DNA of 64,000 nucleotides. Source: Escherichia coli (GTDB lineage Bacteria > Pseudomonadota > Gammaproteobacteria > Enterobacterales > Enterobacteriaceae). Of the stretch, positions 58,189-63,865 are shown piece by piece. Position numbers and translations under genes: made by a program. The notes under the pieces were generated by a model. It was given only the letters and a program-made list of their open reading frames with translations. It ran no database searches and was not told the DNA's origin. Numbering within the stretch: the first letter of the stretch is position 1; each line of letters begins with the position of its first letter. The DNA lies in the NCBI RefSeq assembly GCF_044324785.1, contig NZ_CP172127.1, one strand, 5' to 3'.

Positions 58189-58514
58189 TGGCCTCTGATA
58201 ATTCGATTGACCGTCGGCGGATGCGGCGCGAGTGCCTGGTCCGCCCTACAAGGCACCTCAATCGGAGGCCTGAGAAGACGCAACAGCGTCGCATCGGGCA
58301 ATCAGCATCAAACAATGCCACTCAAAACGTCAAATTACTTTCACCTAAAATACCCTTATCACCTGATATACAGTGAACACCTTACCTGGCGCGAATTTCT
58401 TTGAATAACGGCCTGCCGACCCGCTTATTTGCGCATCTTTTGTCTCGATATACATTTTCTGACATCCTCATCCGCTATGCTACAGGCACTAAAAATGGTT
58501 ATTGAGGAGCAAAT

Positions 58515-59174
58515 ATGGCTAACTGGTTAAATCAACTGCAATCCCTGCTTGGGCAAAGCAGTTCTTCTACCTCCTCGTCTGCGGATCAGGGATTGGGCAA
58601 ACTTTTAGTGCCTGGCGCATTAGGCGGACTGGCTGGGCTGCTGGTCGCAAATAAATCAGCACGTAAACTTCTTACGAAATATGGCACCAACGCGTTGCTG
58701 GTTGGCGGCGGAGCGGTAGCGGGTACGGTGCTGTGGAATAAATACAAAGATAAAATTCGCGCGGCGCATCAGGACGAACCGCAGTTTGGCGTGCAGAGTA
58801 CGCCGCTGGATGAGCGTACGAAACGTTTGATCCTTGCGCTGGTCTTTGCCGCTAAAAGTGATGGTCATATTGATGCCAAAGAACGTGCGGCAATCGACCA
58901 GCAATTGCGTGAAGCCGGCGTGGAAGAGCAGGGGCGTGTACTCATTGAGCAGGCAATCGAACAACCGCTGGATCCACAACGCCTGGCTACCGGGGTCCGC
59001 AATGAAGAAGAGGCGTTGGAAATCTATTTCCTGAGCTGCGCGGCTATTGATATTGACCATTTTATGGAACGCAGTTACCTGAATGCACTGGGTGACGCGC
59101 TGAAAATCCCGCAGGATGTTCGTGAAGGCATTGAACGCGATCTCGAACAGCAAAAACGCACTTTGGCGGAATAA
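58515..59174 (+). CDS. yebE: DUF533-family inner membrane protein YebE
   Basis: ORF track 219 aa. Confidence 0.9.
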
Positions 59175-59182
59175 TTCCGCTC

Positions 59183-59219
59183 TCTGGATAGCCTGAAGTT
59201 GACGATTTCGGGCTATCCA
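59183..59219. terminator. Hairpin immediately downstream of yebE (tctggatagcc ... ggctatccaga), no clear T-tract
   Basis: 11-bp inverted repeat read from sequence. Confidence 0.45.
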
Positions 59220-59280
59220 GAACCGCACAGCCATTTGAGCAGGCTGATTTTCTCTGTCTGCATAACATTCGATATCCGCG

Positions 59281-59500
59281 CCATTACCTGTCATCATGTG
59301 ACTGCTCCCCGCCCTGTCGGGCGAGGCTTCCCACTTCTTAAGCCGCAACCGTCTGTGTGACGGATTTACGCTGGCCTCCATGGGCAGAAACGACGAGTCC
59401 CGCCGCTTGTAATTCCAGTATGCCCTTGCGTTTGATGTTGAGCGCCGCGTTGATATCGCGGTCATGTTCAACTCCACACTCTGGACACTGCCAGATGCGC
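59281..59500 (-). ncRNA. Predicted TnpB guide RNA (omegaRNA / right-end RNA): scaffold overlapping the tnpB 3' end and right-end hairpin, guide from adjacent flank
   Basis: Inferred from the established architecture of TnpB systems (omegaRNA encoded at the tnpB 3' end through the IS right end); not directly visible as a gene; boundaries are approximate. Confidence 0.3.
59307..59326. repeat. Subterminal imperfect hairpin at the tnpB-proximal IS end (ccccgccc tgtc gggcgagg)
   Basis: 5-bp GC stem + mismatch + 2 bp; same motif and orientation as the hairpin at the other end. Confidence 0.7.
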
Positions 59501-60507
59501 TTATGTAATGGCATCTCCGACATTTTGTGACCGCAGCAGTGGCAGGTCTTCGAACTGGCGAACCATTGATCCAGTTTCACCAGATGCACACCTTTCTCTG
59601 TTGCTTTGTATTCCAGTTTTGTGATGAATCCAGACCATCCAGCATCGCCTATCGCACGAGCCAGATGGTGATTTTTCATCATATTTGCCGTTTTCAATGT
59701 CTCGACAATTACCGCTTGGTTTTCGTCAACAATTGCGCGAGATAACTTGTGCTGGAAATCGGCACGGGCACTAGCTACCCGTTCGTGAACGGCTGCAAGT
59801 TGTATTCTGGCTTTGCGCCTGTTTGCGCTCCCTTTTTTCTTACGGGACAGTGCTTTCTGCTTCCGGCGCAGGTTGCGACTTGCATTGATTAGGTGGCGGG
59901 GACTGGCAATTTTATTGCCGTCCGATTTGATGACAAAATGCGCCAGCCCCATATCCAGCCCTGTCACATTTGATATCAGTGCGGGCTTTGCCGGCGCTTC
60001 CATCCCGTCGTCACAGAGTAACGACGCGTAGTATTTCCCGGTTGCGCTGCGGCTCAACGTGATACTTTTCAGCATTCCCGTAATTTCACGATGTAAACGC
60101 GCTTCAATCGGCAAGATTTTCGGTATTTTTATCGCACCATCAAGGACTTTTATGCCAACACAATGATAGCTCGATTGTCTGCCGTGTTTACTTTTAAAGG
60201 TTGGTTTACCTGCTTTCAGTTTCGGATTGAAAAAGTTAGAAAAAGCCACGTCGAGGTTAATTACCGCCTGCTGCAACGCAATAGAATCATATTCTTTAAG
60301 CCATCCATACCGGCGGGATTTCTTCGCCACTGCAAGCAGTGGTTTGAGGTCTTTACGCGGGTTTAAATTTACGCGGTGCCGCTGGTAAGAATGTTTCTTG
60401 ATATGCAGAGCTTTGTTGTACGCAAAACGCACTGCACCGAACTGGGCGTTGATAAATTCAGCCTGTTCTGGTGTCGGGTAGATGCGTACTTTTGTTGCTC
60501 TTAACAT
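59338..60507 (-). CDS. tnpB: TnpB (IS605 OrfB-family RNA-guided endonuclease; RuvC-like + zinc finger)
   Basis: ORF track 389 aa; N-terminus MLRATKVRIYPTPEQ is classic TnpB; RuvC-I D in GLDMGL, RuvC-II E in VIVETL, zinc finger CHCCGH...CPECG, RuvC-III DRDINAALNI; ATG start. Confidence 0.92.
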   Translation of the reverse strand: MLRATKVRIYPTPEQAEFINAQFGAVRFAYNKALHIKKHSYQRHRVNLNPRKDLKPLLAVAKKSRRYGWLKEYDSIALQQAVINLDVAFSNFFNPKLKAGKPTFKSKHGRQSSYHCVGIKVLDGAIKIPKILPIEARLHREITGMLKSITLSRSATGKYYASLLCDDGMEAPAKPALISNVTGLDMGLAHFVIKSDGNKIASPRHLINASRNLRRKQKALSRKKKGSANRRKARIQLAAVHERVASARADFQHKLSRAIVDENQAVIVETLKTANMMKNHHLARAIGDAGWSGFITKLEYKATEKGVHLVKLDQWFASSKTCHCCGHKMSEMPLHKRIWQCPECGVEHDRDINAALNIKRKGILELQAAGLVVSAHGGQRKSVTQTVAA

Positions 60508-60529
60508 AATCAGCGCTCATTGATATAAT
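60501..60529 (+). promoter_or_regulatory. Putative sigma70 promoter for tnpA (-35 TTAACA at 60501..60506, 17-nt spacer, extended -10 TGaTATAAT at 60521..60529)
   Basis: Consensus -10 TATAAT with upstream TG; followed by SD aggtgg at 60549..60554 and a TTG start at 60564. Confidence 0.45.
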
Positions 60530-60535
60530 GCTTTT

Positions 60536-60563
60536 ATTTTAACACTTTAGGTGGATATATCAA
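60536..60563 (-). promoter_or_regulatory. Putative sigma70 promoter for tnpB (-35 TTGATA at 60558..60563, 16-nt spacer, -10 TAAAAT at 60536..60541, minus strand)
   Basis: Hexamers read from sequence; no experimental support. Confidence 0.4.
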
Positions 60564-60989
60564 TTGAGTAATCATGATGATTTACTGGCGGGATTTCTCC
60601 GCAAACGACACAGTGTCAGTAAGCTGGTTGTGCACCTTATTTTTACGACAAAGTATCGACGCAAACTATTCGACAGTCAGATGATCGCTCAGTTGCGTGA
60701 GGCTTTTGGCTCCGCTGCGGCAAAGCTTGAATGCGAAATTATTGAGATGGACGGGGAGCCAGACCATGTACACCTGCTGGTTGCCTACCCGCCAAAACTG
60801 GCGGTCAGTGTGATGGTCAATAATTTAAAATCGGTATCATCACGTTTGCTACGCCAGCAGAACGCGCATTTACGTATGCAGAGTAAAACGGGGCTTTTGT
60901 GGTCGAGATCGTACTTTGTCTGTAGCACCGGAGAGGCAACGATTGAAACGCTCAGAGCCTACGTTCAGAGTCAGTCAACACCTGATTGA
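60564..60989 (+). CDS. tnpA: TnpA (IS200-type Y1 HUH single-strand transposase)
   Basis: ORF track 141 aa; HUH motif HVHLL; C-terminal catalytic Tyr region SRSYFVCSTG; conserved TTKYRR; probable TTG start preceded by AGGTGG. Confidence 0.9.
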   Translation: MSNHDDLLAGFLRKRHSVSKLVVHLIFTTKYRRKLFDSQMIAQLREAFGSAAAKLECEIIEMDGEPDHVHLLVAYPPKLAVSVMVNNLKSVSSRLLRQQNAHLRMQSKTGLLWSRSYFVCSTGEATIETLRAYVQSQSTPD

Positions 60990-60994
60990 TCTTT

Positions 60995-61011
60995 AAAGCC
61001 CTGCGGGCTTT
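60995..61011 (+). terminator. Rho-independent terminator after tnpA (aaagccc tgc gggcttt + T)
   Basis: 7-bp stem, 3-nt loop, T-run; read from sequence. Confidence 0.6.
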
Positions 61012-61022
61012 TCGCCTTATAT

Positions 61023-61043
61023 CCCCGCCCGCATTGGGCGAGG
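61023..61043. repeat. Subterminal imperfect hairpin at the tnpA-proximal IS end (ccccgccc gcatt gggcgagg)
   Basis: Same stem sequence and mismatch position as the hairpin at 59307..59326. Confidence 0.7.
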
Positions 61044-61118
61044 GTTTACGGCGTTTTTCGCTAAGCAATGACTACCCTGTTTCGCTTGCATCTCCGGTGA
61101 GTTTTGCCACCCTTATAA

Positions 61119-63865
<2,747 letters not shown>

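Follow-up and report, generated by a model that had tools for sequence, protein, structure and literature searches.

A complete insertion sequence of 1,763 bp lies between yebE and ptrB in the window, by which we mean the whole 64-kb stretch of Escherichia coli DNA that was analysed. It carries a Y1 transposase gene and a tnpB gene transcribed divergently from it, and the minus strand of the window serves as its active top strand. The features are listed below with coordinates, strand and the evidence for each.

59298..61060, minus: complete ISEc46-type IS200/IS605 element, 1,763 bp (empty-site alignment and copies elsewhere)
61061..61064, minus: target and left cleavage site 5'-TTAG, host DNA, predicted TnpB TAM (empty site and 12 insertions)
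61048..61060, minus: left-end linker CGAAAAACGCCGT, 13 nt, from the cleavage point to the guide (sequence)
61044..61047, minus: left guide GL, AAAC, immediately 5' of the foot of the left hairpin (IS608 rule and flank covariation)
61023..61043, minus: left imperfect palindrome IPL, top strand CCTCGCCC-AATGC-GGGCGGGG, with a conserved T.G mismatch (sequence)
60564..60989, plus: tnpA, Y1 (HUH) transposase, 141 aa, transcribed from the bottom strand and divergent from tnpB (profiles and structure alignments)
60508..60563, no strand: tnpB-tnpA spacer, 56 bp, with back-to-back promoter-like sites (consensus matches only)
59338..60507, minus: tnpB, TnpB-family RNA-guided endonuclease, 389 aa, intact (profile and ISDra2 alignment)
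59327..59330, minus: right guide GR, GAAG, immediately 5' of the foot of the right hairpin (IS608 rule and invariance)
59307..59326, minus: right imperfect palindrome IPR, top strand CCTCGCCC-GACA-GGGCGGGG (sequence)
59298..59301, minus: right cleavage site and transposon-encoded motif TCAC, the last 4 nt, cut 9 nt 3' of the hairpin (empty-site junction)
59298..59387, minus: 3'-terminal 90 nt, overlapping the final 16 codons of tnpB and presumed to form the 3' portion of the omega-RNA scaffold (conservation)
59282..59297, minus: right-end flank ATGATGACAGGTAATG, predicted omega-RNA guide (analogy to ISDra2 and Geobacillus elements)
59284..59287, plus: TTAC, host DNA, a chance match; the junction lies 10 nt further on (empty site CCATTACCTGTCATCAT)

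Inspection of the sequence shows one hairpin copy at the low-coordinate end of the element (CCCCGCCC at 59307..59314, loop TGTC, GGGCGAGG at 59319..59326) and a second, in the identical orientation, at the other end (CCCCGCCC at 61023..61030, loop GCATT, GGGCGAGG at 61036..61043). The pattern CCCCGCCC-N4-5-GGGCGAGG is matched twice in the 64-kb window, both times by these hairpins, versus zero matches in 100 shuffles. On the minus strand the left end reads ttag/CGAAAAACGCCGT-AAAC-CCTCGCCC-AATGC-GGGCGGGG and the right end GAAG-CCTCGCCC-GACA-GGGCGGGG-AGCAG-TCAC/, with the slash marking the cut. Both ends of the element thus have subterminal imperfect palindromes in the same orientation, and there are no terminal inverted repeats. 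A plus-strand TTAC at 59284..59287 lies exactly 19 nt upstream of the first hairpin, and CTAA at 61061..61064 (TTAG on the minus strand) lies 17 nt past the second. The hairpin sequences, positions and orientation and the TTAC and TTAG spacings had all been described in an earlier, sequence-only reading of this DNA, and each was confirmed; its proposal that an IS200/IS605-type element is recognised in single-stranded form at these subterminal hairpins is supported.

The termini were fixed to the nucleotide by comparison with an empty site. The yebE-ptrB interval was found in 5,425 of 5,426 complete E. coli genomes, most of which lack the element, and the interval of E. coli K-12 HMS174 (L001) served as reference. 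Window positions 59100..59297 align with L001 301..498 and positions 61061..61300 with L001 499..738, the empty site reading ...CCATTACCTGTCATCAT/CTAAGCAATGAC..., which places the element junctions at 59297/59298 and 61060/61061. This placement is unambiguous, because the bases flanking each junction differ between the occupied and the empty site. Both junctions fall inside the ranges in which the termini had previously been expected (59288..59297 and 61053..61062), and copies of the element at other sites match window 59298..61060. Insertion took place without target-site duplication, as it did for the derivative L027.

A query across the 59297/59298 junction was matched in full in 400 of the 5,426 genomes, and roughly 7% of complete E. 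coli genomes have the element at yebE-ptrB. A shared junction on this scale would fit a copy that is fixed, vertically inherited and rarely or never moving, a reading that concerns activity rather than identity. It is favoured further by frameshifts in tnpB in some of the copies at this site (L011, L013 and L021) and by the orientation of the window copy, whose top strand is on the leading-strand template, as judged from the positive GC skew of the plus strand; this orientation has been reported as disfavoured for both excision and insertion in the IS200/IS605 family. The window copy, however, retains both genes and both ends intact. Several chromosomal and plasmid sites in E. coli hold copies that are 99-100% identical, and some genomes have two copies (L020 and L021 in one assembly), which points to recent movement of this type of element. 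The contigs found with the exact TnpA have it only at the yebE-ptrB site, the other sites having been reached through a one-residue TnpA variant. We regard a fixed copy that seldom or never moves as a live possibility, though less likely than not. Replication orientation was also considered as a check on the choice of strand and was set aside: of three chromosomal sites, two place the top strand on the leading-strand template (for the rhmR insertion, the orientation was deduced from gene order), which is too few to carry meaning, and the junction evidence outweighs it.

The TTAG next to the left end belongs to the host. It occurs once in the empty site, as CTAAGC on the plus strand, and is not repeated at the other junction of the occupied site; it is therefore target DNA, outside the element. 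Matches to copies elsewhere do run through 61064, as they should if TTAG were the last four nucleotides of an element spanning 59298..61064, but this delimitation is very unlikely given the single CTAAGC of the empty site, and in the IS200/IS605 family the left cleavage site lies outside the element by definition.

The flanks were read at independent insertions of the element and its relatives in E. coli chromosomes, plasmids and viral contigs. TTAG directly adjoins the left end at 12 of 12 independent insertion sites (element and relatives with at least 69% TnpB identity). One is yebE-ptrB itself, another is near tRNA-Arg/yfdC, and a third lies within an IclR-family gene. The others are on an IncHI1B plasmid, on Enterobacter and Serratia plasmids, at a phage-plasmid site and at five places in viral contigs, two of them with elements whose TnpB is only about 70% identical. 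No base of the right flank is conserved across independent insertions. On the tnpB sense strand, TTAG precedes every left end of the window type. This identifies the minus strand of the window as the active top strand, on which the element runs from its left end at 61060 to its right end at 59298.

Two strand readings had been put forward from the sequence. The minus-strand one, with a left end near 61060 and TTAG about 17 nt from the hairpin, is the one that stands, and the plus-strand one fails. The latter takes the plus strand as the top strand, TTAC at 59284..59287 as the left cleavage and target site and a right end near 61060, and draws its appeal from a TTAC-hairpin spacing of 19 nt, the same as in IS608. 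We give it next to no credence: TTAC and the 10 nt that follow it are host DNA, unchanged in the empty site; homology among copies at other sites ends at 59298; the four plus-strand bases 5' of the hairpin, TGCT, are unable to pair with TTAC; and the tnpB 3' end, with the presumed omega-RNA, would come to lie at the wrong end. TTAC was rejected as a cleavage site on junction, flank conservation and guide pairing, and is a chance match.

The pairing rule established for IS608 of Helicobacter pylori leads to the same minus-strand assignment. IS608 is cleaved on the left at TTAC, 19 nt 5' of the foot of the left hairpin, and on the right at TCAA, 10 nt 3' of the hairpin at that end; the guides AAAG (GL) and GAAT (GR) stand immediately 5' of the hairpins. 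The pairs A+16:T-3 and A+17:T-4 join cleavage-site base 1 to guide base 2 and cleavage-site base 2 to guide base 1. In the Barabas 2008 structures, base 4 of the cleavage site reportedly pairs with base 4 of the guide, and this pairing is consistent with both IS608 ends. In the window element, AAAC/TTAG and GAAG/TCAC on the minus strand each give the three expected Watson-Crick pairs (C1:G2, C2:G1 and C4:G4, where C is the cleavage site and G the guide), those of GAAG/TCAC being T:A, C:G and C:G. Relative to IS608 the fourth position is changed on both partners at both ends, that is, in a compensatory manner, and the spacings are 17 nt (left) and 9 nt (right) versus 19 and 10. As the rule fits the minus strand only, the earlier statement that the sequence alone cannot decide between the strands does not hold.

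Natural variation among the relatives bears out the rule. These fall into two left-end classes, and many are 1.33-kb derivatives that retain a right end, tnpB and a left end and have lost tnpA. All 12 sites with guide AAAC have TTAG as flank, and all 8 with guide GAAC have TCAG; the C2:G1 pair predicts just this switch to GAAC/TCAG, which thereby supports the IS608 rule. For one TCAG-class element the joined flanks form an uninterrupted 140-nt match in 298 plasmids, an empty site that confirms the ends of that element and shows TCAG to be target DNA. The right end is invariably GAAG...TCAC in relatives down to 70% TnpB identity. Changes in the hairpin stem are compensatory (C.G to A.T in L053 and L054; C.G to G.C in L040, L041 and L051), and the relatives with such changes keep the T.G mismatch.

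By its RefSeq annotation the element is ISEc46, of the IS605 type within the IS200/IS605 family: near-identical TnpA copies carry the RefSeq/PGAP product name 'IS200/IS605-like element ISEc46 family transposase', and there is no detectable difference between the RefSeq-named ISEc46 and the window element. The IS605-type features found are a Y1 HUH TnpA, tnpB, palindromes in the same orientation, the lack of a target duplication, a tetranucleotide at the left end only, and guide complementarity. IS609 (insQ/yncK of E. coli K-12), named as a comparator in the sequence-only reading, proved to be a different element. It shares with the window element a divergent tnpA/tnpB arrangement and a similar left-end design, and its annotated ends fit the same guide rule, with flank TTAT and guide AAAA. 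That the window element is itself a copy of IS609, an IS605-type element annotated in K-12, can be dismissed: the lengths are close (1,748 versus 1,763 bp) and a 41-nt stretch of the left end is 80% identical, but DNA similarity is limited to those 41 nt, TnpB is 28% and TnpA 49% identical, the annotated IS609 flank is TTAT rather than TTAG, and the RefSeq label is ISEc46.

The closest mechanistic parallels are with IS608 and ISDra2. Like IS608, the window element has a Y1 HUH TnpA and subterminal palindromes on one strand, makes no target duplication, inserts 3' of a tetranucleotide, has a 4-nt guide on the 5' side of each hairpin for pairing with the cleavage site, and shows an asymmetric geometry in which the left cut is far 5' of its hairpin and the right cut close 3' of its own. 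Unlike IS608, it has TTAG rather than TTAC as target, TCAC rather than TCAA as right motif and the compensatory guides AAAC and GAAG, and the TnpA proteins are similar at family level only (E 5e-19). The tnpA and tnpB genes of IS608 are co-directional, whereas those of the window element are divergent. In ISDra2 (Deinococcus radiodurans), residues K76, F77 and Q80 of TnpB are experimentally supported TAM contacts. Q80 is conserved in the window TnpB as Q79, whereas K76 and F77 are replaced by S75 and I76, and the TAM and target of ISDra2 is TTGAT rather than TTAG.

Both genes are intact and of the expected families. TnpA scores 141.8 bits against NF033573 (cut-off 55), has PF01797 on record, and aligns through its HUH motif (DHVHLL) and catalytic tyrosine (RSYFV) with solved TnpA structures, including that of IS608. 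TnpB scores 342 bits against NF040570 (cut-off 100), has PF12323, PF01385 and PF07282 on record, and aligns over its full length with ISDra2 TnpB (E 4e-74), including the GLDMG, VETL, HDRD and CxxC..CxxC motifs. The promoter-like sites, which are consensus matches only, lie at 60501..60529 on the plus strand (TTAACA-17-TATAAT, 11/12) and at 60563..60536 on the minus strand (TTGATA-16-TAAAAT, 10/12). A GCCC-TGC-GGGC TTTT hairpin just past tnpA was not called by the terminator scan, and we claim no terminator there.

We propose that the window holds an intact ISEc46 in yebE-ptrB at 59298..61060 that would transpose in the manner of IS608 and ISDra2 and be retained by TnpB homing, and we place the probability of this reading at about 0.93. 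Movement would follow the strand-specific, single-strand 'peel and paste' route of the IS200/IS605 family. On the IS608/ISDra2 paradigm, a TnpA dimer would bind both hairpins on the single-stranded top (minus) strand, and the guides would bring TTAG/ and TCAC/ into the TnpA active sites. The top strand would then leave as a single-stranded circle with the RE-LE junction ...GTCAC/CGAAAAAC..., the flanks would reseal to ...GCTTAG/ATGATG..., and the circle could re-insert 3' of another TTAG in single-stranded DNA. A literature search returned no biochemical or genetic test of ISEc46.

In ISDra2 and Geobacillus elements, TnpB works with an RNA derived from the 3' end of tnpB together with the right end. 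The DNA immediately outside the right end supplies the guide, and the transposon target serves as TAM; TnpB cuts the resealed donor joint, and recombination restores the element. By analogy, TnpB of the window element, with an omega-RNA from the tnpB 3' end and right end, would cut the resealed donor joint GCTTAG/ATGATGACAGG (minus strand; TAM TTAG plus right flank), and recombination would restore the element. The omega-RNA would take its guide from the right flank and use TTAG as TAM. In eight elements of 78-100% identity, 80-88% of the columns in the last 90 nt are invariant versus 41-55% in the upstream coding sequence, a pattern that fits a double constraint. An Rfam scan of 58500..61700 (E<=1) returned neither an omega-RNA nor any IS605-related family; its single match, to mir-4662 on a terminator-like hairpin of yebE, is spurious. 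RNAalifold applied to the last 233 nt of eight related elements gave almost no two-sided covariation and only one-sided pair changes, because the eight sequences are too similar. With no decisive covariation, the omega-RNA is therefore one that we infer.

The two left-end classes also differ in TnpB. When 11 TTAG-class proteins (69-100% identity to the window protein) are aligned with 7 of the TCAG class, only three columns separate the classes: A59S, Y73F and I76M. In the alignment with ISDra2 TnpB, I76 corresponds to F77, S75 to K76 and Q79 to Q80, so that the three class-separating residues are at or near positions aligned with the ISDra2 TAM contacts.

Elements of two kinds mix the classes. 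TnpB of L031 belongs overall to the TCAG clade (about 93% identical), yet L031 has a TTAG-type left end; it is a mosaic in which a TTAG-type patch of about 60 nt, codons 57-77, has TCAG-clade sequence on both sides. This patch, a presumed conversion tract, takes in all three class-separating codons. Simple linkage to the left end was considered as the cause of the association between residues and target and was partly rejected through L031, whose first 56 TnpB codons, between the left end and the patch, belong to the other class. In L027 and L037, TnpB is 99.5% identical to the window protein and is joined to a TCAG-type left end, and these are probably mismatched chimeras. It is possible, at a little short of even odds, that in this group of ISEc46-like elements the one-base switch of target and TAM from TTAG to TCAG is made jointly by a change of the TnpA guide from AAAC to GAAC and by the TnpB substitutions A59S, Y73F and I76M. 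The association between residues and target reflects few independent evolutionary events and is a lead, not a result.

The identification is correct but ordinary: ISEc46 is already catalogued, and in the literature it is only listed, in resistance-genome surveys. What had been an ambiguous annotation is now exact, with an element at 59298..61060, its top strand on the minus strand, a TTAG target, a TCAC right end and no target duplication. With the IS608 guide rule, the sequence by itself suffices to predict the ends of an E. coli element, which is useful for annotating IS200/IS605 copies and for predicting TnpB TAMs, here TTAG. Wider interest lies only in the co-variation of TnpA guide, target and three TnpB residues in sister elements. 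If the joint switch is real, L027, with a TTAG-type TnpB and a TCAG-type left end, would be a mismatched element unable to home, and specificity at TAM position -3 would be set by three substitutions in a close relative of ISDra2 TnpB.

Sequence alignments of the IS200/IS605-family TnpB proteins show that only three columns separate proteins of the TTAG class (left-end guide AAAC), to which the ISEc46 copy between yebE and ptrB belongs, from those of the TCAG class (left-end guide GAAC): residues 59, 73, and 76, which are Ala, Tyr, and Ile in the former vs. Ser, Phe, and Met in the latter. The three residues fall within tnpB codons 59-76 of the window (60280-60333), and the compared loci comprise L030-L033 and L040-L054. 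Residue 76 aligns with Phe77 of ISDra2 TnpB, a TAM contact. In L031, a conversion patch of about 60 nt spans exactly the codons for residues 59, 73, and 76, and L027/L037 is a chimera in which a TCAG-type left end is joined to a TTAG-type TnpB.

Many of the compared loci are 1.33-kb derivatives without tnpA, in which tnpB is still bounded by the right end and by a left end. They are common on plasmids (P1-like/IncY, IncF, and others) and in viral contigs, and 298 plasmids carry the empty site of L027. The left ends of the derivatives fall into two classes, with guide AAAC (the 4 nt directly 5′ of the hairpin) and flank TTAG vs. guide GAAC and flank TCAG.

Derivatives of 1.33 kb (each locus in its own coordinates)
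L027, 1501-2830: 1.33-kb derivative
L030, L031, L032, L033, L037-L039, L042-L048, L050, L052: further 1.33-kb derivatives

Additional hairpins were observed next to some elements. In L032 (543-563) and L050 (3260-3280), a hairpin of the same family, TGCT-CCCCGCCCTGGCTGGGCGAGG, lies in the opposite orientation about 650 nt past the right end, and apparently marks the terminus of another related element. In L028 (1473-1500), on an IncF plasmid, only 5 nt separate the right end (...TCAC) from a second left-end-like hairpin, AAAT-CCTCGCCAATACGGATGGCGGGG, which may belong to an abutting or nested related element.

Several copies are altered. At the yebE-ptrB site, tnpB is frameshifted in L011, L013, and L021 (tnpB region 1271-2444), with the tblastn match falling in two frames and no tnpB gene call; the Serratia copy (L026) and the L028 copy are likewise disrupted. 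In another yebE-ptrB copy, L006 (2978-2997), the left-end linker is CGAAACCGCCGT instead of CGAAAAACGCCGT; it has lost 1 nt and carries C in place of an A, so that the spacing from cleavage site to hairpin is 16 nt. The annotated ends of IS609 from E. coli K-12 (L035, 5162-6909) share the design of the ISEc46 copy, with flank TTAT preceding the left end, AAAA directly 5′ of the hairpin, and TCAA as the last bases of the right end.

Other sequence features of the window
60501-60563, both strands: back-to-back promoter-like sites, 11/12 and 10/12 consensus matches
59183-59221: inverted repeat, 15-nt arms, 93% complementary, just past the yebE stop codon
61025-61035 and 61159-61169: 11-nt exact direct repeat CCGCCCGCATT, common to the left-end hairpin and the ptrB start

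Both promoter-like sites, in the 56-bp tnpB-tnpA spacer, contain an extended -10 TG. The inverted repeat is probably the yebE terminator; its match to Rfam mir-4662 (21.9 bits vs. a gathering score of 97) is spurious. The 11-nt repeat is probably due to chance.

The plus strand shows a positive GC skew throughout the window (1-64000), placing the top (minus) strand of the element on the leading-strand template. The L034 copy near yfdC matches this orientation, and gene order puts a copy within rhmR/yfaX, an IclR-family gene, in the favoured orientation. A top strand on the leading-strand template is the orientation reported to be disfavoured for both excision and insertion of IS200/IS605 elements.
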